Part shown: positions 423-30,726 of the stretch, piece by piece
How positions within the stretch are numbered: the first letter of the stretch is position 1
Layout of the letters: each line of letters begins with the position of its first letter
Source: an archaeon
GTDB taxonomy: Archaea > B1Sed10-29 > JAJRYS01
Length of the DNA stretch: 36,028 nt
Direction: 5' to 3'
NCBI GenBank assembly: GCA_038736665.1
Contig: JAVYMF010000002.1
Coordinates: 1 to 36,028 of the forward strand
Translations under genes and position numbers: made by a program
Notes under the pieces: model-generated
The model's database searches: none
Seen by the model: only the letters and a program-made list of their open reading frames with translations
Told to the model about the DNA's origin: nothing

Positions 423-463
423 ATCAAAGCGCTGAAGCTTACGTTTTTTCGCAAAAAAGATAG

Positions 464-537
464 CGCCTCGGGTCGGATTTGAACCGACGGCCTATCGGTT
501 AACAGCCGATCACTCTACCGGACTAAGCTACCGAGGC
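464..537 (-). tRNA. tRNA-Asn(GTT), no intron, CCA not encoded
   Basis: Reverse complement GCCTCGGTAGCTTAGTCCGGTAGAGTGATCGGCTGTTAACCGATAGGCCGTCGGTTCAAATCCGACCCGAGGCG folds as a cloverleaf with anticodon GTT. Confidence 0.97.
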
Positions 538-573: not shown

Positions 574-1854
574 TTAAGGATAATACCTTTCCATCGTTCT
601 CGGGAAAGGAATAGCGTCTTTTATTGATTCCAGCCCGCAGATCCACTGGACGACGCGGTCCGTGCCCATTCCGAAGCCGGCGTGCGGGATAGAACCGTAT
701 CTTCTCGTGTCGAAGTACCACTCGTAGTCTTTCGCATCTTCCCCTTTTTCTTCCAGCGCCTTTTTCATTTCCTCGATGTCGAGGTCGCGTTCCGAGCCTC
801 CTATTACTTCAAAGCCCGTTTCCGGGACGAGCACGTCCAAGCACCGAGCAGTGCGCGGGTCTTTCGGGTCGCGCGGCTTGTAAAAAGCCATTACTTCTTT
901 CGGGTAGTGCGTGACTATAAGGGGTTTGTCGTAGTGCGTCATCAATTGTTTTTCTTCAGGGGTGCGCAGGTCTTTTCCCCACTTGACTTTCATGCCGTCT
1001 TTTTCCAGCAATTTCAAAGCTTCTGTATATGTTATTCGCGGGAATGGCGGTTTTATTTTCTTCAGCTTTTCCGGGTCGCGCCCCAGCTCGCGCAGTTCAG
1101 CCGCGCAGTCTTCCGCGACTTTCTGGCAGATGAAAGAGATCAGTTCTTCGCAGACAGACGCGAGTCCGTCCAGGTCCATCCACGCGGCTTCCATTTCAGT
1201 GTGCCAGTATTCCGTTAGGTGCCTTGAAGTCTTGCTTTTTTCAGCGCGGAAGGACGGAGCCACTGTGTAGATTTTTTCCAGCGAGAATATCATTGCTTCG
1301 GCGTAGAATTGCCATGTCTGCGCGAGCCGCATGGGCTTTCCGAAGTAGTCCACTTGGAACATTTCCAGCCCGCTTTCAGACGTTTTTGTGACAAAAGGAG
1401 CGTGCGTTTCGTAGTAGCCGTGCGAGTCGAAGTATTCATGAATCGCCCTGAATACCCTGCTGCGTATTTTCCAGATATGCGTCATTTTGCGCGAGCGCAC
1501 CCACAAGTGCCGCACGTCCAGCAGGAACTCGTCGCTCTGGTCCTTGGTTATCGGGAACCTTTCCGCCATCTGAATGACGCGGATTGACTCTCCTTTTATT
1601 TCGTATCCTCCTGGAGCGCGCTCGTCTTTTGCAACGACGCCCGTTATTTCAGCGGAAGATTCGATCATAACACTACTGGCTGTTTTGAAATCGCTAGAAT
1701 CTTTTTTGAAAGTGCATTGAATAATTCCGGAAGAGTCGCGCATGACGACGAACGCCGCGTCTTTTCCGGAGCGCTGCCTGTAAACCCATCCACGGATGCT
1801 CACGCTCTTTCCGACGCTTTTCGCGACTTCTGAAATCGGCGTGAACTCCGTCAT
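574..1854 (-). CDS. asnS: Asparagine--tRNA ligase
   Basis: N-terminal OB fold (RGWVYR, RDSSG), motif 2 FRAEKSKTSRHLTEYWHTEMEAAW, EVIGGSER, motif 3 PHAGFGMGTDR, C-terminal PFPR; archaeal AsnRS-type. Confidence 0.9.
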   Translation of the reverse strand: MTEFTPISEVAKSVGKSVSIRGWVYRQRSGKDAAFVVMRDSSGIIQCTFKKDSSDFKTASSVMIESSAEITGVVAKDERAPGGYEIKGESIRVIQMAERFPITKDQSDEFLLDVRHLWVRSRKMTHIWKIRSRVFRAIHEYFDSHGYYETHAPFVTKTSESGLEMFQVDYFGKPMRLAQTWQFYAEAMIFSLEKIYTVAPSFRAEKSKTSRHLTEYWHTEMEAAWMDLDGLASVCEELISFICQKVAEDCAAELRELGRDPEKLKKIKPPFPRITYTEALKLLEKDGMKVKWGKDLRTPEEKQLMTHYDKPLIVTHYPKEVMAFYKPRDPKDPRTARCLDVLVPETGFEVIGGSERDLDIEEMKKALEEKGEDAKDYEWYFDTRRYGSIPHAGFGMGTDRVVQWICGLESIKDAIPFPRTMERYYP

Positions 1855-1906
1855 TTTTTCACCAGCATATTGTTATGAATGCGGTTGTATATAACGATTT
1901 TGTGTG

Positions 1907-2071
1907 ATGCTTGAAAAAGCGGTCGCTGATGAAAGCCTTTACTGCGGCATTTTTCTGGTGCTGACTATGCTTTTCATCCCCTTCAGGAGATTGTTCGCGT
2001 TGCTTTCTTCAGCCATTTTTATCACGGTTATTTCTGCATTGCTGTGTTTAAATACGTTGCTTTCTTATTAA
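1907..2071 (+). CDS. Possible 54-aa hydrophobic small protein
   Basis: ATG 1907 to TAA 2071: MLEKAVADESLYCGIFLVLTMLFIPFRRLFALLSSAIFITVISALLCLNTLLSY; fills the gap and ends 5 nt before the next ATG; below the ORF track cutoff. Confidence 0.35.
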   Translation: MLEKAVADESLYCGIFLVLTMLFIPFRRLFALLSSAIFITVISALLCLNTLLSY

Positions 2072-2076
2072 TTCTT

Positions 2077-2661
2077 ATGGAGTGGGACAAGGAGCAGATA
2101 TCTGACCTGCTGCAGAAAGCCAGCGACGCAAACGTAGACTTTACGCTGACTGACGCGCAGATAGCGGAGTTCATTTCTTTCGACCGTTCTCCCGCGAGCG
2201 ACATCGGTATGAGCGTTATGAAAGGCGTGTCGCGCGTCGTGCGGCAGTACGGGGACAAGCAAGCGCCTTACCGCATCAAGGCTTTCGAGAAGCAGTTCGC
2301 GGAGAACAAGATGGAAGTTTACGTTTTTTCGAATGAGGGCACGCTTTGCGGTAAGGATGTTTTGAATACCATTTATGTGTTTGAAGGAAGCGTTTACAGC
2401 GTTCCTCCTTCTGGCGGGGACTTTGGCGTTGTGCGCGAGAAAGGCGTGAAGACTCTTTCGCTTGCTGATGCGTTCGCTTCTCTTGTCGCGGCGAAGGCAG
2501 AAGCAATGCCTTCGGATTATTCTGTTGTGGAGATGGGTTTCGCTAAGAGTTTTGACGAGATGAATATTCGCGTGCCCCCGTTCCTGAAAAAGTATTTTGA
2601 AAAAAAGAGGCTGTTCATCGAGTCCGACATTTCCTGCAGGGCTGAAGTGAAGTTATTTTAA
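2077..2661 (+). CDS. Stand-alone SepRS C-terminal (anticodon-binding) domain-like protein
   Basis: Blocks LTDAQIAEFISFDRSP, LCGKDVLNTIYVFEGSVYSVPP, EKGVKT-LSLADAFA and KSFDEMNIRV are collinear with my recollection of the SepRS C-terminus (LSDxEIAxMIxIDKxP, LCGPAxxNEIxVxDGNIxGIP, EKGVxTGIRYIDAFA, KSxSDINI); ATG 2077 has TTTAAATA about 25 nt upstream. Confidence 0.7.
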   Translation: MEWDKEQISDLLQKASDANVDFTLTDAQIAEFISFDRSPASDIGMSVMKGVSRVVRQYGDKQAPYRIKAFEKQFAENKMEVYVFSNEGTLCGKDVLNTIYVFEGSVYSVPPSGGDFGVVREKGVKTLSLADAFASLVAAKAEAMPSDYSVVEMGFAKSFDEMNIRVPPFLKKYFEKKRLFIESDISCRAEVKLF

Positions 2662-4545
2662 GCGTATGCTGTCCAGGTTTCTCGGCGCCGTTGCTTCGAC
2701 GCGGAACTTGTATGCTAGCGAGCGCGCGAGGTTCATCGTCTTGTTTTCTTCGCCGTGGACTGTCAATACGCGCTCTGGTTTCGGGGACAGTTTCTTGAAG
2801 TAGCCTAGCAGCTGGTTGAGGTCCGCGTGTCCCGAGAAGCCGTCGATTGACTGAACGCCTGCGTTTATCTTGTATTCCTGCATTTTTCCGTTCGTTTCGA
2901 GTACGACTTCTTTCGCGCCGCGCTGTATTTTTCGTCCGAGTGAGCCTTCGGCTTGGTATCCGGCGAAAATTATTTCGTTCTTCGGGTTTTCGGCTATCAT
3001 TTTGAAGTAGTCAATTACCGGTCCGCCATTCATCATTCCGGCTGGGGCGAGCATCACGCAGCGGCCGTCTTCGGCTATCTGCTGCCTTTGCTTCGGATCC
3101 ACTTCTTGGAATATGTTTGAGTCGAAAGGGGAGTCGTTGTGCAGCATTCTCCGGTGCAGCGAGCGCTTCAGGTACTCCGGGTACGCGGAATGTATTGCGG
3201 ATGCTTCTTTGGTCATGCCGTCCAAGTATACTGGTATGTCCCAGCCGCCGTGTGTTTTCGCATAAGCTTCGATGACCATCATTACTTCTTGGGCACGGCC
3301 TACTGCGAAAGTCGGGATGAGGACCATCCCGTTCTGCTGCGCTACTCTGTGGATTGTGTCTATCAGCATTTTTTCGCCGACGTAACGCGGCTTCTGCACG
3401 TCCTGAGGGCCGCCGTACGTCGATTCTATGATGAGTGTTTCGAGCCTCGGGAACCGCGTTTCTGCCGGGTCGAACAGCTCGGTATAGCCGAACTTGAGGT
3501 CTCCGGTGTACAGGAGGTTGTGGGCGCCAGAGCCTATGTGCATGTGTATCAATGAAGAGCCGATCAAGTGGCCTGCGTTGTGCAGGGTCAATCTTATGTC
3601 CGGGGCTATGTCCGTGACTTCGCCGTATTCTTTGGTTATGCAGTGCTTCACTTCGCTTTTGATCTCTTTTTCCGAGTAAGGCGGCGTTTTCGCGGTTTTT
3701 TCGAGGACGCTGATGTAATCCTTCTGTAAGAGAGTCATTACGTCGCGCGTAGCTGGCGTGCAGTACACAGGTCCTTCGTAGCCGTACTGGTAAAGATACG
3801 GCAAAAAGCCGCTGTGGTCCAGGTGACCATGTGATATGACTACCGCGTCCAGTTCTTCAAGCGAGAAGTCCACTGATGACAGGTAAGGGAAGGCGTTTTC
3901 CGTTGATGCTACGCTTACCCCGCAGTCCATTAGCACTTTGCTTTCAGGAGTTTCCAGGAGTATGCATGAGCGCCCGACTTCGCGCCAGCCGCCGAGTCCT
4001 GTTATTCGTATCCAGTCCGTCGGCTTAGTGTCGCCTCTGTAAATGCGTTTGCCGACGTTCTTGAGGATTTTTTTCCTGTCAGCACTTTCCCGCACGAGCG
4101 TGTCGCGGATGCCTTTCATCATTTTTGACTCTGTCGTGGGCACGCGCAGGAGCTTCGGGCTCCAGCCTGTTTTTTTTGTGATTGTTTTCAGCGTTTCGCC
4201 ACCGGGTCCTATGACCAAGCCAAGTTTTTCTGCTTCGATGTTCACTTCGTTGAAGCTAGTGTCAAAAGAGATGTTTTTGATGCCGGCTTCCGACGGGACG
4301 GTTTCTTCTATTATTTTTTTGGCGTTTTCCGGGTCCGCGAGCATCGTGACGTCTGTCCTGACTATGAATCTTTTCTTGAGTGTTCCGGCAAGTTTTTTGA
4401 TGAGCGTTTCGTCTTCCAGGAATTTCGCTATGTTTTTCGAGTAGATCACTATGTCCGGTCCTTCGAGTTCTACGCTCGCGATTTGGCACTCTTCAGGCAG
4501 TATTTCTCTGATTTGCTTTTCAATGTCTTTGAGGAACTGATTCAA
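2653..4545 (-). CDS. fttA: Beta-CASP ribonuclease aCPSF1 / transcription termination factor FttA
   Basis: Two N-terminal KH domains (VIGPGG), GGWREVGRS, HGHLDH metallo-beta-lactamase motif, ESTYG, FSGHAD, VHGE; likely TTG start at 4545 after GAGGGG; adjacent to psmB as in many archaea. Confidence 0.95.
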   Translation of the reverse strand: MNQFLKDIEKQIREILPEECQIASVELEGPDIVIYSKNIAKFLEDETLIKKLAGTLKKRFIVRTDVTMLADPENAKKIIEETVPSEAGIKNISFDTSFNEVNIEAEKLGLVIGPGGETLKTITKKTGWSPKLLRVPTTESKMMKGIRDTLVRESADRKKILKNVGKRIYRGDTKPTDWIRITGLGGWREVGRSCILLETPESKVLMDCGVSVASTENAFPYLSSVDFSLEELDAVVISHGHLDHSGFLPYLYQYGYEGPVYCTPATRDVMTLLQKDYISVLEKTAKTPPYSEKEIKSEVKHCITKEYGEVTDIAPDIRLTLHNAGHLIGSSLIHMHIGSGAHNLLYTGDLKFGYTELFDPAETRFPRLETLIIESTYGGPQDVQKPRYVGEKMLIDTIHRVAQQNGMVLIPTFAVGRAQEVMMVIEAYAKTHGGWDIPVYLDGMTKEASAIHSAYPEYLKRSLHRRMLHNDSPFDSNIFQEVDPKQRQQIAEDGRCVMLAPAGMMNGGPVIDYFKMIAENPKNEIIFAGYQAEGSLGRKIQRGAKEVVLETNGKMQEYKINAGVQSIDGFSGHADLNQLLGYFKKLSPKPERVLTVHGEENKTMNLARSLAYKFRVEATAPRNLDSIRLK

Positions 4546-4602
4546 AATTGTCCCCTCTTTTTTATCTTTGTTTTTTTTCAAAAGGGTTTTAAACAAGGCG
4601 CT

Positions 4603-6078: not shown

Positions 6079-7170
6079 ATGAAGAACTGGATAATGATAC
6101 TCATTGTGTTCGTAATTCTCGTGCTTTCGGTCGGGCCTCTTTCTTATTTTTTTGGGGCTGGCGCCGAGATCAACAGCATTCCTTACAACAATGACAGCGA
6201 CAAAAACCTGCTGTTGTCGCTTTCAGGGAATGCTACTGGAAAAATTATACAAATAATGCCTTATATTTCTTACGTGGGCGTGTCTCAGGCGAACGATGAG
6301 TCGGTGGCGCGCGAAGTTATGTCATACGTGAATTATACGGACAATTACACGCTGCATGTTTCCCTGAACCCTTTCGGGGCAGGATACAGGCACGAGATAT
6401 TCATCCCTCTCAAGAACGAGTCAGATGCTCTTGAAGTGGGCTTTAAGGCGAAGCTGAACCTTGACCCGTTCTTCCAGGATTCTTACACCACAACTTTGGG
6501 CGTCGTTCAACTGGACGACAATTTCACGGCGGCTGGGAGAACGATACGAGCAAGCAATAAGACCGCGGCTGCTGTGCTGCTTTATTCCAGCAAGAAGAAC
6601 CAGCCTGTCAGAATATTCTGTCCTGAGATGACTGTGACGGAAGCAGGAGCACTTGTTGGCTTAGGACAGCTGTGCGCCGACCTGTCCCAAGGATACAAGC
6701 ATGGGCTGTCATTCATGGATTACTTGTTCAACGAGAAAGAGGCGAATAAGACAATGACTTTGAACATTACTCTCATTGATCATGTTGAAATCGACGGTAC
6801 GTTCAAAGGCTTGCTTAATGAAACGCAATTGCGCGATGAAATAGGCCAGGAAATGGCTGTCTATAATCCGAGCAATGAATCAGGCGCCGGAACGATAACG
6901 GTTTACTTATTGGATGTTGAAAACTCGTCGCTGATTTCAGGGGTGCAGGACGCGCTCAAGTCGCATGGCGTGAACGTCACGCGAACGTCGAAAATAGGCG
7001 TCGTTACGGATGTTCCGAAGGAAATCGATTTAAACGGCTCAGTAAAAAGGCTTTACCACATACCCTACTTCACCGTAAGGCTTGGGATGGGCGAAGGTAC
7101 TGGTGAAAAAACATTCACAGCAAAACTAATAACTGTATTCGGCGAAGTCACGGACATAATAGCTTACTGA
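6079..7170 (+). CDS. Hypothetical secreted or membrane-anchored glycoprotein
   Basis: N-terminal hydrophobic signal/anchor; 14 N-X-S/T sequons in 363 aa. Confidence 0.75.
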   Translation: MKNWIMILIVFVILVLSVGPLSYFFGAGAEINSIPYNNDSDKNLLLSLSGNATGKIIQIMPYISYVGVSQANDESVAREVMSYVNYTDNYTLHVSLNPFGAGYRHEIFIPLKNESDALEVGFKAKLNLDPFFQDSYTTTLGVVQLDDNFTAAGRTIRASNKTAAAVLLYSSKKNQPVRIFCPEMTVTEAGALVGLGQLCADLSQGYKHGLSFMDYLFNEKEANKTMTLNITLIDHVEIDGTFKGLLNETQLRDEIGQEMAVYNPSNESGAGTITVYLLDVENSSLISGVQDALKSHGVNVTRTSKIGVVTDVPKEIDLNGSVKRLYHIPYFTVRLGMGEGTGEKTFTAKLITVFGEVTDIIAY

Positions 7171-7490: not shown

Positions 7491-7567
7491 GACAAATCAC
7501 CTTTTTTAACTTTCCCCGCGTTACTTTGTTTATGGATTTTTCTTTTAGGCTGCCGGGCTTTAAAATA

Positions 7568-8134
7568 ATGACAGCAGCGATTTCGCGCGAGAAAGCTATT
7601 GAGCTGTACTTGGCTGACGGAGGGGTCATAAAGTACGAAGGCGACCGCATTGTTTATCCTGACAAGAAGCGGTTGATGAGCCAACTGGAATCAGCGGAGA
7701 AAAAATACAGTTACCTCTCTTCCGTGATAAGCGAGCTTGAAAAGCACTCCAAGAACTACAATTATGACTCGGCGCTGAAAACAATTTCCCGCGCGTTCGA
7801 CCCTGTTTACTGGGAGCATCAGTACAGGAAAAGGACCGACGAGGATTACCGAACCGCGTTCGAGAAAGTCCAGCCTCCGATAGAGCGAATGCACGAGGAA
7901 CGGTGGAAAAACGTCGTTAGGATGTTCGTGCAGGACAAGGAATACCGCGATAGGCTCGTGGAAGCGAAGACGAGCGTGATAAGCACGAGCCCGTCGATGA
8001 AGGACGAGGTTGCGAAAAACCTCGCGGTTACGCGGGAGCTGATCAACGCGCGTCTTAAGAAGCTTAGGAAAGAGAGGTCTTATTTTGAGGAGAAAATCAC
8101 GCTGCTCCGCGCGATGATGGAGTACGTGGAATAG
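7568..8134 (+). CDS. Hypothetical helical/coiled-coil protein
   Basis: Long ORF with typical codon usage; charged heptad-like segments near both ends; ATG 7568 preferred over TTG 7526. Confidence 0.7.
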   Translation: MTAAISREKAIELYLADGGVIKYEGDRIVYPDKKRLMSQLESAEKKYSYLSSVISELEKHSKNYNYDSALKTISRAFDPVYWEHQYRKRTDEDYRTAFEKVQPPIERMHEERWKNVVRMFVQDKEYRDRLVEAKTSVISTSPSMKDEVAKNLAVTRELINARLKKLRKERSYFEEKITLLRAMMEYVE

Positions 8135-8845
8135 TCATTTCTCAAGCGAGAACCTCAGCCGGACAGTGCCTGAGCCTTTGCTTTCATGCCCTGTTATGCG
8201 AATGCAGCCGACTTCGCTCGTGTTTTTCACGTGTGTTCCGGCGCAAGGGCAGACGTCAACTTCTTCAATTACTACGAGGCGGATTGACTTGATCGACTCC
8301 GGCAAGCGCTCGAACAAGCGCCTTCTTTTCTCGTCCACGCGCTGCATCATTTCTTCGCGAGTTACTGTTTCGAAATTAACCGGCGCCGAGGATTTTATTA
8401 CAGCATTGAATTTTTCCTCTATGTTTTTTTGCTTTTCTTCGTTCCACTCGAAAGGTCGGAAGTCTATGCGCGATTCTTCATCGTGAATCTGGTTTCCCGC
8501 GGTTTCTGCACCGTATTCTTCGAGAACGATAGCTGAAAGTATGTGCTGCGCGGTGTGCATCCTCATATGCGCGTAGCGCTTTTCCCAGTCGATGACGCCA
8601 TGCACGCGCGTTCCAGCTGGTAGAGCTCTTTCAACGTAGTGCCTGGATTCTCCTTTTTCTTTTTTTACGGACGTCACGCGGACTCTTTCTCCGTTTTCCA
8701 GAATAAGAACGCCAGTATCTCCAGTTTGTCCTCCGGATTCAGGGTAAAAGGCGCTGTCTTTCAGCAAAACGTAGCCGTTTTCGGACTTCGTTACTTCTGA
8801 GTCAAATTCTTTCAAGTAGCAGTCCTGCAAGTAAAGCTCTGCCAT
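8135..8845 (-). CDS. alaXM: Alanyl-tRNA editing protein AlaX-M
   Basis: FYPESGGQ.GDTG; zinc motifs HTAQH and CAGTH. Confidence 0.93.
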   Translation of the reverse strand: MAELYLQDCYLKEFDSEVTKSENGYVLLKDSAFYPESGGQTGDTGVLILENGERVRVTSVKKEKGESRHYVERALPAGTRVHGVIDWEKRYAHMRMHTAQHILSAIVLEEYGAETAGNQIHDEESRIDFRPFEWNEEKQKNIEEKFNAVIKSSAPVNFETVTREEMMQRVDEKRRRLFERLPESIKSIRLVVIEEVDVCPCAGTHVKNTSEVGCIRITGHESKGSGTVRLRFSLEK

Positions 8846-11255: not shown

Positions 11256-12047
11256 ATGATCCTGGAAAATCCTGCGCTCCAGCTGTCGGTAGGGATGCAG
11301 GACATCCTCGACATCCTCGAAAGCACCCTTAAAGAACGCAACTGGACGCACTTCGACGTCGCAAACCTCAAGCTGACGTATGTTCCTTTCTACGTTTTCA
11401 ATTACGACACGCTAGTGGAAAAAAAAGTCGAGAGCGACACTTATTCTCAAGGATTCTCTGGCTTAATGGCAATGAACGCCGTTACCGGAAAGCTTGAGCC
11501 GCTTCTGACTCAGATTTTAAGCGAGCAGCCCGTGAATTATGAGCGCGAGATATCCCACGACCTGCAGTACGAAATGCAGAACCCGGCGATTCTCGGTGAT
11601 GAAGTGAAGGAATCCGCGCGCCTGAAGCTCGCCGGCCAGTTCAACGTAGGCAAGGATTCCATGTCAATCAGCGGCGTGCGCCTAGTTTATTGGCCCATTT
11701 GGAAAGTTTTCGTGACCCTCCCGAACAAGAGAATACAGAAGATGGAAGTCGAGGCAGTTGCAGGATATCCTCTTAACGTTGAAGAAGTGCCGGAGCGCGA
11801 GAAAACGTGGATGGAAGTAACAAGTGAAACTCTCGCAAAACTAAAAACGCCGCAAGGATGGGCCGAGTTAAGTAAGACAGCGATTAAGACGACTGCGGCC
11901 GCTGTTACAAGCGGCGCGAAGAACCAACCGCGCGGCGAGTCGTCCTTGTCAAAGCTAGTCGCCTGGCTTATTCACTCGAAGAACGGGCGCTACGCGCTTA
12001 TAGGAATAATCGCCATCATTGTAATTTTGCTGTTCTGGCAGAAATGA
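11256..12047 (+). CDS. Hypothetical protein with an internal tandem repeat and C-terminal TM anchor
   Basis: Two copies of L.Y.P.(Y/W)...A V.G; C-terminal YALIGIIAIIVILLFW. Confidence 0.8.
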   Translation: MILENPALQLSVGMQDILDILESTLKERNWTHFDVANLKLTYVPFYVFNYDTLVEKKVESDTYSQGFSGLMAMNAVTGKLEPLLTQILSEQPVNYEREISHDLQYEMQNPAILGDEVKESARLKLAGQFNVGKDSMSISGVRLVYWPIWKVFVTLPNKRIQKMEVEAVAGYPLNVEEVPEREKTWMEVTSETLAKLKTPQGWAELSKTAIKTTAAAVTSGAKNQPRGESSLSKLVAWLIHSKNGRYALIGIIAIIVILLFWQK

Positions 12048-20861: not shown

Positions 20862-21518
20862 TTAAAACCTGTCTATTAATTCTTGTTTTTTTGGCTTGCT
20901 GGCGTACTTGTCTTTTTTGCCGTTTTTCTGCGGGTTCCATATTAGCATATCTATTATGTAAATCTTGTTTTTGTGGGGGTCGTATATTGCGTTGGCCTCT
21001 GTTATATCCCCGAAGGGGTAGAATTCGTTGTGCTCTGCACCTCTTTTTTTTGCTTCTTTTATTATTAGGGCTTTAGTTTTCTCGAACATACTTTGTATTT
21101 TTTTCATGTTCTCAGGCGTGTCTTTCATGAATCTTACGATCGGGCCGTCAATCCGTTGCTCTTCCCACACTATCAGGCTTTCTCCGTTTCTCCCAACGCG
21201 CTTAGTTATTCTTATCGGCTTAGGGACAGGCAGTCCTGCTGAATGCAGGGTTCTTTGGAATTTCAGCCTGCGAACCAAATTGTCAAAAGTTATTGTTCCC
21301 AGCGCATTCTCTCGGCTTTCTTCGTAATGTTTTTCAACTGTTTGTCGCAATGGACTTATTTTGTGGTATACTGCGGTGGCTTCTTCTCCTTTTACTTCTT
21401 CTTTCAATGTCTTAGTGCGCAGTGACGGCGGAATCTCGCCAACCCTTGTGTAAAACTTCATTTTCTTGGACAAACGGCTCTTTTCCCTTCGAGGTTGTTT
21501 TTTCACTCCGACAGTCAT
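20862..21518 (-). CDS. Basic protein-kinase-like (RIO/Kdo-like fold) protein
   Basis: LHSAGLPVPKP, EQRIDG, GDITEANAIY, IYIID correspond to PKL subdomains; Lys/Arg-rich; A/T-richer than neighbours. Confidence 0.55.
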   Translation of the reverse strand: MTVGVKKQPRREKSRLSKKMKFYTRVGEIPPSLRTKTLKEEVKGEEATAVYHKISPLRQTVEKHYEESRENALGTITFDNLVRRLKFQRTLHSAGLPVPKPIRITKRVGRNGESLIVWEEQRIDGPIVRFMKDTPENMKKIQSMFEKTKALIIKEAKKRGAEHNEFYPFGDITEANAIYDPHKNKIYIIDMLIWNPQKNGKKDKYASKPKKQELIDRF

Positions 21519-21591
21519 GCTTGGATTATGCTTTTTGCCTTAAATAACGTTTTATATACTCGTTTCCCGTTAATTGTATGCAGTGATTCGC

Positions 21592-22299
21592 ATGAAATTT
21601 GTTCTTTCATCGTTCTTGGTTGTGCTATTGTCAGCTACGGCGATGTCCGCGTGCTCTGATTACGTGAGCATAGCCGAAAGCAGGCTTATTCCCCCTTACC
21701 CGAATTACTTCGGGGCGGCAGGGGAGTATGTGCACGCCGCTGACTGCTATTACGCCGAAGGAAATATTGGCATCGCTAATTTTTACTACAAGCAGGCCGG
21801 AGACGACTACATTCTCGCGGCAGGCGAGCTAGTTGCTGGCGGCGATTATTACCAGCGCGCGAAATCATACGAGATGGCAGCCGACGCTTACGCGCGAGCA
21901 GGCCTGAAAAACAAGGCCACAGAGTATTACTCAAGAGCCTTGGCAGAGTTCAACAAGCATTATTACACTCAGGAAGCTTCGCTGGTCCAAGGGAAGATTG
22001 ATTCATTGGCAGGAAAACAATCCGCCGAGTTCATAGGAATCATAGGCCTTGTTTCGCTGATGGCTTTGTTTGTAAGCTTTTTCGCGCTTTTGTACATGTT
22101 CGCAACGAAGCTCGAAATAAGAGAGAAGCTGCGCGAGATGAAAGCATCGCGCCCGCCATCGCCCCCTCCGATAGTTAAGAGGAGCGCCGAGCAGTTTCGC
22201 TCGCCCATAATTCCGAAGCGCGAGCCTGAGCCGCGCATTCCGACGGCAAAAGAAAAGATGGCTCAGAAGCTGCGCGAGAAATACATGCCAAAGTATTAA
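21592..22299 (+). CDS. Type I membrane protein with TPR/SNAP-like extracellular helices and a Pro-rich basic tail
   Basis: Signal peptide MKFVLSSFLVVLLSATAMSA, A..Y..AA..Y repeats, TM FIGIIGLVSLMALFVSFFALLYMFA, RPPSPPP tail. Confidence 0.7.
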   Translation: MKFVLSSFLVVLLSATAMSACSDYVSIAESRLIPPYPNYFGAAGEYVHAADCYYAEGNIGIANFYYKQAGDDYILAAGELVAGGDYYQRAKSYEMAADAYARAGLKNKATEYYSRALAEFNKHYYTQEASLVQGKIDSLAGKQSAEFIGIIGLVSLMALFVSFFALLYMFATKLEIREKLREMKASRPPSPPPIVKRSAEQFRSPIIPKREPEPRIPTAKEKMAQKLREKYMPKY

Positions 22300-28002: not shown

Positions 28003-28707
28003 ATGAAGAGAATTCAGTCAGGAATTCCTGGGCTGGATGGGCTGATTGAAGGGGGATTTCCGCATCCTTCGTCAATACTCCTTACGGGGCCAACAGGCAG
28101 CGCTAAGACAGTGCTGGGACTGCAGTTTTTGTACAAGGGAGCTTCCGAGCTGAACGAGCCCGGCTTCATGGTGGACATAGCCGGCTATAGCACGACACTG
28201 CAGTGGTATTCTGAAAAGTTCTCGTGGGACATCGCCAAGCTGCAGCAGAAAGGAAAGCTGGTGTTCTCTTCGTACGACCCGATCGATTTCGAGAAGTTCG
28301 AGTTCAGGACTCTTCATTCTGAAATCATCGTCCAGTTGGGAAAAATAATAGACCAGATAGGAGCGAAGCGCGTGGTTATTGACTCAATAACGCCGTTAGG
28401 CCAGTCCATCAACGACCAGGCGAAGTTCCGTACTCTCTTGTATTACTTGTCCCGCGCTTTGAAAGACAAGGGTTGCACGACCCTTTTCATCGCTGAGACG
28501 CGCGGGCAGGATTTGACGCAGTTCGGCGTGGAGCAGCATGTCATGGATGGCGTGCTTGAGATGTCGCTTACGCAAAAGAGCCCCGCAGAAGGCGTGCTGA
28601 GCCACACGATAATGGTCCGCAAGATGCTGGCCACAGAGTTCCCGATAGCGAGATATCTCGTTGATTTCGGCGAAAGCGGCGTTCAGCTGGCAACTGGTTA
28701 TTATTAA
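28003..28707 (+). CDS. KaiC-like / RAD55-family ATPase (degenerate motifs)
   Basis: SGIPGLD.LIEGG, Walker A GPTGSAKT, QFLYKGA, Walker B RVVIDS, DGVLE. Confidence 0.85.
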   Translation: MKRIQSGIPGLDGLIEGGFPHPSSILLTGPTGSAKTVLGLQFLYKGASELNEPGFMVDIAGYSTTLQWYSEKFSWDIAKLQQKGKLVFSSYDPIDFEKFEFRTLHSEIIVQLGKIIDQIGAKRVVIDSITPLGQSINDQAKFRTLLYYLSRALKDKGCTTLFIAETRGQDLTQFGVEQHVMDGVLEMSLTQKSPAEGVLSHTIMVRKMLATEFPIARYLVDFGESGVQLATGYY

Positions 28708-28727
28708 TTCTTCAGTTAAAAAAGCAG

Positions 28728-28800
28728 TAGTCCCGGGCGGATTCGAACCGCCGCCCCTGGATCCAAAGTCCAGGATCCTTAGCCACTAGACGACGGGACT
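28728..28800 (-). tRNA. tRNA-Gln(TTG), no intron, CCA not encoded
   Basis: Reverse complement AGTCCCGTCGTCTAGTGGCTAAGGATCCTGGACTTTGGATCCAGGGGCGGCGGTTCGAATCCGCCCGGGACTA; archaeal A1-U72 pair; TATATAAG about 32 nt upstream. Confidence 0.96.
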
Positions 28801-28891
28801 GTTTTTCGCATTCGCTGGTGCTCACAGCTTTCTTATATACCATCTAACCATACGCCCAGTGGGCTGGGCCCACTAGACGACGGGACTGTTT
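28783..28891. repeat. 22-bp exact direct repeat (28783-28804 and 28870-28891) duplicating the tRNA-Gln 5' end
   Basis: CCACTAGACGACGGGACTGTTT occurs twice, 87 bp apart. Confidence 0.95.
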
Positions 28892-28915
28892 CCGCTGTTA
28901 ATTCTGTCGTTTGCT

Positions 28916-29599
28916 TTATATTAGCGCTCCTATGAGCATTCCGAGTACTGCGCCGACCACAGTGGCCAGCAGGTTTGTCGTTGAGTTCCCCCACCATCCA
29001 CGGTTCTCGAAAACCGCTCCCAAGTAAGAGTCCGCGAAATTACCCAGCATCCCCGCCACGACGGCAATCACCAGCGTCTTGGGCGAAGGGAGAATCGCCA
29101 GCGACACGAGCCCTATGGCGAGTGCAGTCATGAATCCCCAGAAAGTCCCAAAGAGGGATATCGCGCCGTTCATTCCAGTGCGCGCAGGCGAAAAATCCGT
29201 TATCATGACAGGCCGCTCGCGCGACGTCACGCCAATTTCTGACGAAACAGTGTCGGAAGCCGCCGCGGCCATAGCGCCTATGAAGCCGTGGATTCCTGCT
29301 GGCCCACCGAGCACGGCCATGAACATAGCCACTCCGCCGTTTGACATGACGTTTTTCGAACCGCGGATTTTCTGCATGAGCTTCATTTTTTCCTTTCGTT
29401 CTTCCTTGTAGCGGGTTGCTGCGGTCCCTATCACGAAGAAGGCGAGCATCACTGCGAACCAGTACACGTTCTGGGTTATAAATATTATGTAAGTCATCAG
29501 CAGAGCCGAAATCGCTCCCATGAAGTTCAGCGACTTGCTTTCCAGACCGATGACCACTATGAAGAGGGGAAGCGCGTACTGAATCAGGGCCCAGTCCAT
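28916..29599 (-). CDS. DUF92 (TMEM19) family membrane protein
   Basis: RGSKNVMSNG, AASDTVSSEIG, GMNGAISLFG, DSYLGA, N.TTNL. Confidence 0.9.
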   Translation of the reverse strand: MDWALIQYALPLFIVVIGLESKSLNFMGAISALLMTYIIFITQNVYWFAVMLAFFVIGTAATRYKEERKEKMKLMQKIRGSKNVMSNGGVAMFMAVLGGPAGIHGFIGAMAAAASDTVSSEIGVTSRERPVMITDFSPARTGMNGAISLFGTFWGFMTALAIGLVSLAILPSPKTLVIAVVAGMLGNFADSYLGAVFENRGWWGNSTTNLLATVVGAVLGMLIGALI

Positions 29600-29600
29600 T

Positions 29601-30194
29601 TTATTTTCCTCTCACGAACTTGAGCTTTGACACTTCTACGCGCTTTATCGGGCACACGGCTTTTGTTTCCCTGAGTATTTCCGTGGGCGTGGTTCCGAAA
29701 ACGCATTTCTGTATGAGTTCCTCTGCTGTGTTTTCAGGTATTTGCTTCGAGAGGTACTCGTTCATCAGCCTGCGTATCTCGTCTTTCTTTGTGGTGTCCA
29801 CTTTGCGGCCGGTGAAAACGTAAGCTGTCAGGCGTATTTTTTTACCGTCTTTCGTTGTACCATCTTTGATAAGCTTTACTATGCTGCGGTGCCTTCTTAT
29901 GTTCCTGCGAAGATACTCGGAGACGAGCTCGAATCCTTCCAGTGTTGTGTGCGCCGTCTTCCCTTTTACTTCGGTTATCCTAAGCCACATTTTGACGAAC
30001 TGGTGGTTCATATTTCCCGTTATGTCGCGCAGCGGAACGCGGAGCACGCGATTTAGCAGGTTTTTCTCGTCAGAGGCCACTGTTGTGGTTATCTCTTTTT
30101 CTTCGAATACTTTCGGTGCTGCTATTGTGTACCATTCTTTTTTCTTCCACGTGTCGACTGTCTTCCTTTTCTTTATTTTCTTTTCTTCTGCCAT
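29601..30194 (-). CDS. rps3ae: 30S ribosomal protein S3Ae (eS1)
   Basis: DTWKKKEWYTIAAP.VF, TKDG, PIKRVEVSK. Confidence 0.95.
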   Translation of the reverse strand: MAEEKKIKKRKTVDTWKKKEWYTIAAPKVFEEKEITTTVASDEKNLLNRVLRVPLRDITGNMNHQFVKMWLRITEVKGKTAHTTLEGFELVSEYLRRNIRRHRSIVKLIKDGTTKDGKKIRLTAYVFTGRKVDTTKKDEIRRLMNEYLSKQIPENTAEELIQKCVFGTTPTEILRETKAVCPIKRVEVSKLKFVRGK

Positions 30195-30199
30195 GATTA

Positions 30200-30658
30200 T
30201 CACTCTTTGATTAACAGAGCTGCCTCTTCTGGCTTGTAGTGCCAGTCTTTCGGCACGCGTCCTGTTGTTTTGTAGTAGTTTACGAGCCTTTTTATCTTTG
30301 ATTCGGTGAGCTGAAGCCTTCTCGCGTTTATTTTGTCAGCCTTGTTAGAGTCCAAGTGGCGCTTCAGCCTTACAGCTTTCTTGAACAGGTTCATCAGGTC
30401 CTCGGGCCATTTCGGGAGAAGTTTTTCGGCGCTCAGTATTTTCGACACGGATTTTCCAGTGATTGCTTTCACGCTCGGGATGCCGTACTGGTCGCGCAGT
30501 ATTCCGCCAATCTCTGATATTGGCTTTCCTTCTTTGAACAGTTTGACGACCAATTCGTTTATTTCTTCTTTTGAATACTGTATCCATTCCGGCTTCACTT
30601 TTGCAGGTGGCCTTGTAGAGCCGGATTTTCCTTTTTTTCTAGCGTGCATTCTCGCCAT
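30200..30658 (-). CDS. rps15: 30S ribosomal protein S15 (uS15)
   Basis: MARMHARKKGKSGS, LRDQYGIP, PEDL, ESKIKRLVNYY; SD GAGGT before ATG 30658. Confidence 0.97.
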   Translation of the reverse strand: MARMHARKKGKSGSTRPPAKVKPEWIQYSKEEINELVVKLFKEGKPISEIGGILRDQYGIPSVKAITGKSVSKILSAEKLLPKWPEDLMNLFKKAVRLKRHLDSNKADKINARRLQLTESKIKRLVNYYKTTGRVPKDWHYKPEEAALLIKE

Positions 30659-30678
30659 TCTGATACCTCTCTTGTTTT

Positions 30679-30726
30679 TTGCGCGACAGGCTCGGACGTG
30701 TTCCGCATCCGCCCTCATTTGCGCAA
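30679..30726 (-). promoter_or_regulatory. Candidate structured 5' leader of rps15
   Basis: Nested stems TTGCGC/GCGCAA and CGGATG/CGTCCG in a roughly 120-nt leader behind TTTATAAA (about 30794-30801). Confidence 0.45.

Follow-up and report, generated by a model that had tools for sequence, protein, structure and literature searches.

PylSn is a free-standing tRNA-binding N-terminal domain of bacterial PylRS and works with the separately encoded catalytic PylSc. AlaX is a second synthetase domain that lives alone, in this case as an enzyme that edits mischarged tRNA. In the synthetase SepRS, the anticodon-binding domain (ABD) binds the anticodon of tRNA-Cys in cis, and the identity elements of tRNA-Cys are G34, C35, A36 and U73, plus G37 for SepRS (PMC2330236). 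Homologs of this C-terminal domain alone were reported by Mukai, Amikura, Fu, Söll and Crnković (2022, Front Genet; PMC8762117, section 3.3.2) in two Micrarchaeota bins of the 'pISA35-group'. According to that section, the small genes are divergent from asnS, and their hosts have a full synthetase set. The authors pointed out the link to asnS and suggested that the small homologs support other aminoacylation systems; the Discussion of the same paper asks what the non-canonical SepRS homologs do (PMC8762117). Our literature search turned up no experimental study of a free-standing SepRS ABD, and this paper was the only relevant one. Here we describe a 194-residue protein encoded at positions 2077 to 2661 of the window, which is the whole stretch of 36,028 nucleotides analyzed (positions 1 to 36,028 of contig JAVYMF010000002.1, assembly GCA_038736665.1). 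The gene is a further member of the group described in 2022. What is new here is a reduction series tied to the loss of SepCysS, evidence of selection, and a minimal domain that can be tested. A preliminary description of the window had called the protein a SepRS ABD without a described stand-alone counterpart; the second half of that statement was wrong, as Mukai et al. report such proteins together with their linkage to asnS (PMC8762117, section 3.3.2).

The protein is a complete SepRS ABD with approximately 20 additional residues at its N-terminus, and its predicted fold is found among PDB structures in SepRS only. The NCBIfam profile of SepRS (TIGR00470) aligned residues 21–178 with profile positions 348–515 of 533 (E 3.5e-16, 58.8 bits). 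This score is far under the curated whole-protein cut-off of 380.65 bits, since the protein covers no more than the tail of the profile, and it places the protein outside the SepRS equivalog. When the PDB sequences were searched with phmmer, significant E-values were obtained only for SepRS chains. The best of these was 2du5_A (E 2.2e-9), with residues 21–177 of the query on 354–515 of the chain. The Pfam model SepRS_C (PF18006), which is only 31 positions long, stayed under its gathering cut-off (18.2 vs 26.9 bits, E 0.0025, residues 97–126). All four blocks of the SepRS C-terminal domain that had been picked out by eye occur in the translation and line up with SepRS in the same order.

The AlphaFold model calculated on a 72-row alignment had a mean predicted local distance difference test (pLDDT) score of 96.8 and a predicted template modeling (pTM) score of 0.91; as a caveat on the predicted fold, this alignment included full-length SepRS and AlphaFold was trained on SepRS structures. 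The model calculated on three near-identical sequences was unusable (pLDDT 31.5). Foldseek against the PDB gave eight matches at E≤0.001, and all eight were SepRS chains (best 2du3_A, E 1.7e-17, TM 0.84). VIA, a structural aligner independent of Foldseek, was run against 48,161 representative chains. It placed residues 22–194 of the model on residues 355–534 of 2du3_A with Z 23.8 and a root-mean-square deviation of 1.5 Å over 172 residues; the second-best fold was an unrelated lectin with Z 6.0. A search of the ESM Atlas by features gave no usable match; the Atlas's own model was poor (pTM 0.21), and its structural rows were meaningless. Homology to the ABD and the ABD fold are practically certain from the profile and structure searches. 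The free-standing SepRS anticodon-binding domain proposed in the preliminary description is thus borne out by profile, fold and open reading frame (ORF).

Scanning metagenomes with an ABD-only alignment gave four loci. The contigs Ga0190313_1000005 and Ga0190313_1000511, which are named in PMC8762117, carry orthologs that are 49% and 41% identical to the window protein over residues 1–193 and 6–191, respectively (L051, L052). asnS flanks the gene at all four loci, and at the three that reach far enough fttA flanks it on the opposite side. Orthology to the published small homologs is all but assured. Those proteins are ABD-only, come from Micrarchaeota, and are encoded divergently from asnS in the same gene order; they differ in nothing essential, and section 3.3.2 gives two examples and no function (PMC8762117). 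Catalytically degenerate full-length SepRS-like proteins of the Micrarchaeota Alv-FOS5 group and of Thermoplasmata are also SepRS descendants that are unpaired with SepCysS (PMC8762117, sections 3.3.1–3.3.2). These keep the whole chain, whereas the window protein has no core, and for the Thermoplasmata forms a changed amino-acid specificity was suggested (PMC8762117). The likeness to the better-known systems is more general. PylSn is also a tRNA-binding synthetase domain made as a separate small protein, but it has its PylSc partner, whereas the window protein has no catalytic partner, and the two folds are unrelated. AlaX is an enzyme, whereas the source domain of the window protein has no known catalytic activity.

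The 194-residue ORF lacks the region of class II motif 2 (R-R-E) and motif 3 (GxGxER). No catalytic remnant was found 5' of the ATG, in agreement with the preliminary description: a six-frame match back to position 1966 added no score (58.6 vs 58.8 bits), and the upstream frame holds stop codons in two relatives (L049 and L032). An upstream in-frame stretch ('...HPLQEIV...') was considered as a remnant of the SepRS 'HPL' helix and rejected. It is the translated intergenic palindrome, it meets stops in L049 and L032, and it adds nothing to the score. From the missing region, aminoacylation activity is predicted to be absent, and we hold this prediction with great confidence.

The genome of the window (G000) is a DPANN metagenome-assembled genome of 552,856 bases in 50 contigs that is 87% complete, and its relatives are listed as 'Candidatus Micrarchaeota archaeon'. 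The genome search proposed in the preliminary description found CysRS (454.6 bits, above the curated cut-off) and neither SepCysS nor a SepRS core in this 87% complete assembly. The best SepCysS match reached only 32 bits, and the sole other TIGR00470 match was PheRS alpha (480 bits for pheS). The synthetases seen were CysRS, AsnRS, PheRS alpha and TyrRS. An intron-containing tRNA-Cys (GCA, G37, U73) lies directly 5' of cysS (contig C20, 5307–5403); ARAGORN without intron mode calls this gene tRNA-Leu(CAG). A Trm5-type methyltransferase is also encoded (112 bits).

A survey of 31 genomes of the phylum revealed a SepRS-type homolog in 20 of them. Family f7, of the same order as the window, has proteins of 531 and 524 residues in its genomes G015 and G016, and both score above the TIGR00470 cut-off (473 and 465 bits). 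Eight genomes of families f10–f12, of the same class, encode proteins of 461–542 residues where complete (105–329 bits). In the sister family f2, again of the same order, five of six genomes carry forms of 383–388 residues where complete (39–99 bits), without the insertion domain and the first helix. The window's own family, f1, has the ABD only, with 192–197 residues and 46–73 bits, in all five genomes including G000. SepCysS occurs in exactly two of the 31 genomes, both from f7 (545 and 549 bits), where one contig carries it together with sepS and cysS; the remaining 29 genomes lack it. Genuine SepRS, scoring above the sepS cut-off, occurs solely in these two SepCysS genomes, and none of the 18 other carriers has SepCysS. 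CysRS was found in 28 genomes, and the three misses are 61–85% complete. Each of the 18 non-genuine carriers has a CysRS match, 17 of them above the cysS cut-off and one (G002) a 152-bit fragment below it. Both catalytic motifs are intact in f7. Among the ten non-genuine proteins with a core region, none has motif 2 and none has GxGxER; in one, the E-R is all that is left of motif 3. The survey pattern therefore indicates that loss of SepCysS goes with the catalytic death of SepRS, and that the ABD is the part that persists.

A search of 1.84 billion representative proteins gave 60 matches, including additional intermediates of 320–432 residues and one protein of 210 residues (P0011). Two of the proteins, P0021 (1160 residues) and P0035 (769 residues), align with the ABD profile over 14 and 8 separate short stretches (profile positions 86–140 and 111–150, respectively); they look repetitive and were excluded from the alignments. 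The eight ABD-only rows come out as a single clade (SH-aLRT 99) in the ABD-region tree. This clade lies within a 24-row group (96) that also includes the f2 forms, the intermediates and the genuine f7 SepRS, apart from the f10–f12 forms and the SepRS of other organisms. The wider look at stand-alone homologs and their neighborhoods that had been recommended thus recovers ABD-only genes in five of five f1 genomes and four of four metagenome loci.

Two loci from the survey are recorded here in their own right. Locus L061 (G016:C3:11000-21500) spans approximately 10 kb and holds cysS, an MBL-fold gene, SepCysS, a class III aminotransferase, a GNAT acetyltransferase, sepS and a ThiF-family gene. 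As cysS is clustered with sepS and SepCysS, the direct and indirect routes to Cys-tRNA coexist in G016. Locus L036 (G022:C26:71000-78166) encodes the least degenerate of the dead SepRS-like proteins (329 bits), with canonical ABD motifs and broken motifs 2 and 3. Its gene is oriented divergently to an operon that comprises a PALP (cysteine-synthase-like) gene, a LAGLIDADG gene and cysS.

Compared with A. fulgidus SepRS, the window protein has the same fold and conserves N163, G123, E142, P39 and G44 at a sequence identity of approximately 20–22%. It differs in having no catalytic core, no SepCysS partner, and neither the acidic E418/E420 pair nor the GPVF tail. The E418/E420 pair of SepRS is said to read G34, a result credited to Fukunaga and Yokoyama in 2007. 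The title of PDB entry 2du5 describes an E418N/E420N mutant made to change anticodon use. In the window protein, S85-N86-E87 stands in place of the pair, in a loop that is two residues shorter. Alignments and motif table confirm both of the substitutions that had been noted earlier, SNE for E-x-E and ESDIS for GPVF. The reading head is changed: its shortened loop contains 'GTLCGKD', x-A-N replaces D-I-N, and the GPVF tail is missing. The tail is gone in all eight ABD-only rows and in most dead forms, and the reading-head changes recur within the ABD-only family and among dead full-length forms of other families. As the anticodon-reading motifs are changed, the altered specificity put forward in the preliminary description is plausible. 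P0012 (391 residues) has lost motif 2 and retains canonical ABD motifs; the loss of the enzyme thus preceded the change of the reading head in that lineage. The position of Ile444 stays hydrophobic (V109), and the adjoining helix 114–122 is retained. A role of Ile444 in recognition of m1G37 was proposed by Mukai et al. in 2017 (PMC5424206). V109 and the helix may thus represent a kept, putative m1G37-recognition element.

The N-terminal residues bear on how the ABD-only form arose. With hhalign, residues 1–18 (MEWDKEQISDLLQKASDA) aligned start-to-start on the N-termini of 26 full-length SepRS or SepRS-like proteins (MWDPEEI...) at a modest P of 0.0035, and the multiple alignment A2 also puts them at the SepRS N-terminus. 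The 210-residue P0011 has the same architecture, a SepRS N-terminal helix joined directly to the ABD. An hmmsearch with a 20-column N-terminal profile found nothing significant, and the superposition on 2du3_A leaves the helix unaligned. Two placements speak against a match of the start: the larger alignment A3 puts the N-terminal residues under the 'HPL' helix (approximately residues 37–51), and the superposition on 2du3_B starts at residue 39. Residues 1–20 probably stem from the N-terminal helix of the ancestral SepRS, although their placement is ambiguous. We lean, with moderate confidence, towards an origin by in-frame internal deletion. Such a deletion would have run from approximately residue 20 to approximately residue 345 of the ancestor and taken out the class II core together with the insertion domain; what would have been left are the start codon, the promoter, the short N-terminal helix and the complete ABD.

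Taken as a whole, the explanation we favor on balance is a SepRS gene that was reduced stepwise to a non-catalytic ABD, which may bind the anticodon arm of tRNA. The lineage would be one of Micrarchaeota that make Cys-tRNA by CysRS and have lost SepCysS, with the gene as the end product of the reduction. The ABD-only protein would bind the anticodon arm and work in trans as a non-catalytic factor that, for instance, holds tRNA or passes it on. Its likeliest ligand would be tRNA-Cys or another tRNA with G37, and its base specificity would be relaxed or changed, the acidic pair and the GPVF tail being gone. Judged by the role of the ABD in SepRS, anticodon-arm binding as the retained function is a tentative proposal. 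A wider version seems unlikely to us, in which the dead SepRS descendants, the ABD-only form included, would constitute a conserved non-enzymatic tRNA factor instead of remnants in decay; its changed reading head would recognize some part of the anticodon loop that is not GCA (e.g., m1G37), and it would serve translation in genome-reduced archaea that have CysRS only.

Several observations weigh against a tRNA-binding function kept from SepRS. With E418/E420 replaced in a shorter loop and GPVF lost in eight of eight rows, SepRS-like reading of GCA is unlikely. The protein is acidic (pI 5.1). It evolves faster than the products of the neighboring genes, with ortholog identities of 41–49% vs 60–72% for AsnRS, 75–77% for FttA and 57–60% for PsmB. 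As the homolog is absent from 11 of the 31 genomes, including the f2 genome G005, it is dispensable in close relatives.

The loss of the anticodon-reading motifs and the acidity would also suit a protein-binding adaptor, in which the ABD serves as scaffold or regulatory subunit of a translation or RNA-processing protein and RNA binding has been lost. Catalytically dead full-length forms persist in many relatives, and pseudo-enzymes often persist as subunits. However, no partner is indicated: the neighbors vary by family (asnS/fttA vs KaiC-like/DUF92), and neighbor annotation found no functional partner common to the neighborhoods of the dead full-length homologs. Moreover, tRNA binding is the only known role of the ABD fold. 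We consider an adaptor an unlikely explanation.

The gene order had suggested a trans factor for AsnRS or FttA. An auxiliary or regulatory protein dedicated to AsnRS or tRNA-Asn, and controlled together with asnS from the divergent promoter region, would fit the position of the ABD-only gene, which is divergent from asnS in all five f1 loci and in the four metagenome loci. In four f1 loci it also converges on fttA, directly or with a gap, and the fifth reaches the contig end. The 383–388-residue gene lies between asnS and fttA, divergent from asnS, in four of five f2 carriers; the fifth, at a contig end, shows fttA only. A tRNA-Asn lies 3' of asnS, a conserved palindrome lies between the TATA-like boxes in three loci, and Mukai et al. 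also point to the asnS link (PMC8762117). The fttA–asnS block exists without the gene, however, in three relatives. There, psmB-fttA-asnS has an fttA–asnS gap of 102 bp in G016, 37 bp in G005 (the f2 genome without a homolog) and 740 bp in G015, in which an unrelated small membrane ORF occupies the gap. In two other families, f10 and f11, the homolog is elsewhere: in four of four examined loci (L037–L040), the dead full-length gene is flanked by a KaiC-like ATPase gene on one side and DUF92-S3Ae on the other. The window has this block too, with tRNA-Gln where the f10 and f11 loci have the dead gene. As the block predates the gene and the homologs are elsewhere in other families, the asnS adjacency looks like inherited gene order, not shared function. 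AsnRS also has its own intact OB-fold anticodon domain, and tRNA-Asn should carry t6A37, not m1G37. A complex prediction of AsnRS (10-row alignment) with the ABD protein (8-row alignment), run without controls, scored 0.00 and is no evidence either way. The gene-order comparison thus weakens the trans-factor ideas for both AsnRS and FttA, which had gene order alone to suggest them, and an AsnRS-specific helper is quite improbable.

The faster evolution, the absence from 11 genomes and the degraded SepRS motifs could be those of a non-functional relic that is being lost. The frame, however, is intact at a near-constant length of 192–197 codons in five genera (five of five f1 genomes) and in four of four metagenome loci, some of which may be the same organisms as f1 genomes. 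Its closest relative with DNA, L049, is 60–61% identical. Synonymous sites are saturated between the two (maximum-likelihood synonymous divergence, dS, approximately 26), which leaves no usable dN/dS ratio, and nonsynonymous divergence (dN) alone was compared. At 0.30–0.35, dN equals that of the N-terminal part of asnS (0.32–0.38). Eight orthologs share 32 invariant columns, and the predicted fold is confident. The genomes are only 0.55–0.7 Mb in size, and small genomes tend to shed useless DNA. From these comparisons, the ABD-only gene is very likely kept by purifying selection, which would be weaker than that on core translation genes, and a relic is very improbable.

Split synthetases exist, PylSn/PylSc being an example, but half of a split SepRS, as the preliminary description had also offered, can practically be dismissed: no catalytic half was found in G000, 87% complete as it is, the only second TIGR00470 match in each of the four other ABD-only genomes is a frame of 496–502 residues in a PheRS-alpha-like profile range (assigned by this range alone and not scored against pheS), and SepCysS is absent from all five. 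With neither a catalytic half nor SepCysS, the split is rejected within the limits of incomplete assemblies.

Synthetase domains that survive as separate proteins illustrate how parts of the translation machinery are taken apart and put to new use. The question raised in PMC8762117 becomes a concrete series within one phylum, from genuine SepRS with SepCysS, through motif-less full-length proteins and forms of approximately 388 residues, to ABD-only proteins of approximately 194 residues. The smallest member would be the minimal part kept by selection. Binding assays are within reach, since it is small, has a confident predicted fold and should express easily. Should it turn out to bind tRNA with a new specificity, nature would offer here a rare example of a synthetase anticodon reader put to use without the enzyme. 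The protein may also be of interest for SepRS engineering in genetic-code expansion. If it binds nothing, it would be a slowly dying remnant of little interest. The features of the locus are collected in Table 1.

Table 1. Positions of the ABD-only gene, its parts and neighboring features in the window.
Feature	Position	Strand	Remark
Gene for 194-residue ABD-only SepRS homolog	2077..2661	+	ATG at 2077, TAA stop at 2659-2661; 194 codons
Probable N-terminal helix, residues 1-20 (MEWDKEQISDLLQKA...)	2077..2136	+	Helix 5-17 in the AlphaFold model
ABD core, residues 21-194	2137..2658	+	Superposition on A. fulgidus SepRS and HMMER alignment
S85-N86-E87, replaces E418-x-E420 loop of A. fulgidus SepRS	2329..2337	+	Alignments to 2du3 and 2du5
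V109, equivalent of Ile444	2401..2403	+	Alignment to SepRS
N163	2563..2565	+	Sole invariant residue over all 72 aligned SepRS-type ABDs
E182-S186 (ESDIS), replaces (R/K)GPVF of working SepRS	2620..2634	+	Alignment and motif table
TATA-box-like element TTTAAATA	2047..2054	+	Centered approximately 27 nt 5' of the ATG
Divergent intergenic region common to asnS and ABD gene	1855..2076	.	Contains the palindrome
Palindrome ATCCCCT-TC-AGGAGAT	1976-1991	.	Between two divergent TATA-like boxes
asnS, divergent neighbor	574..1854	-	NF003037, 461.7 bits (cut-off 414)
tRNA-Asn(GUU), just 3' of asnS	463..537	-	tRNA gene scan
fttA/aCPSF1 (archaeal termination nuclease), convergent neighbor	2653..4596	-	TIGR03675, 846.5 bits; PF17214
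KaiC-like ATPase (+), tRNA-Gln (-), DUF92 (-), ribosomal S3Ae (-), S15 (-)	28003-30718		

The immediate surroundings agree with the preliminary description, which had given the gene its own TATA box and ATG, a divergent asnS approximately 220 nt away and a convergent fttA. As asnS starts at 1854 on the reverse strand and the ABD gene at 2077, 222 nt separate the two start codons. The 3' ends of fttA and the ABD gene overlap by 9 bp. The element TTTAAATA is kept at an equal distance from the ATG in two relatives (L049 and L032). Its sequence and spacing suggest a putative archaeal promoter and fit a leaderless transcript. The palindrome is retained, though with both arms altered, in L049 (ATCCCCTTGAGGGGAT) and L032 (GCCCCTTGCGGGGC), and it is missing in relatives in which the spacer between asnS and the ABD gene is only 53–60 bp. 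It may be a regulator binding site that serves both genes. In G000, tRNA genes adjoin their own synthetase genes, with tRNA-Asn 3' of asnS and tRNA-Cys 5' of cysS.

The window holds a second synthetase-derived stand-alone domain. The gene at 8138-8845 on the reverse strand encodes an AlaXM-like alanyl-tRNA editing protein of 236 residues, which matches NF040865 with 265.5 bits (cut-off 300) and the Pfam family tRNA_SAD. Five further ORFs of 202–363 residues have no Pfam family at E≤1e-5. They lie at 6079-7167 (+), 7526-8131 (+), 11256-12044 (+), 20865-21518 (-) and 21574-22296 (+), and the 363-residue ORF among them is also without an NCBIfam match.

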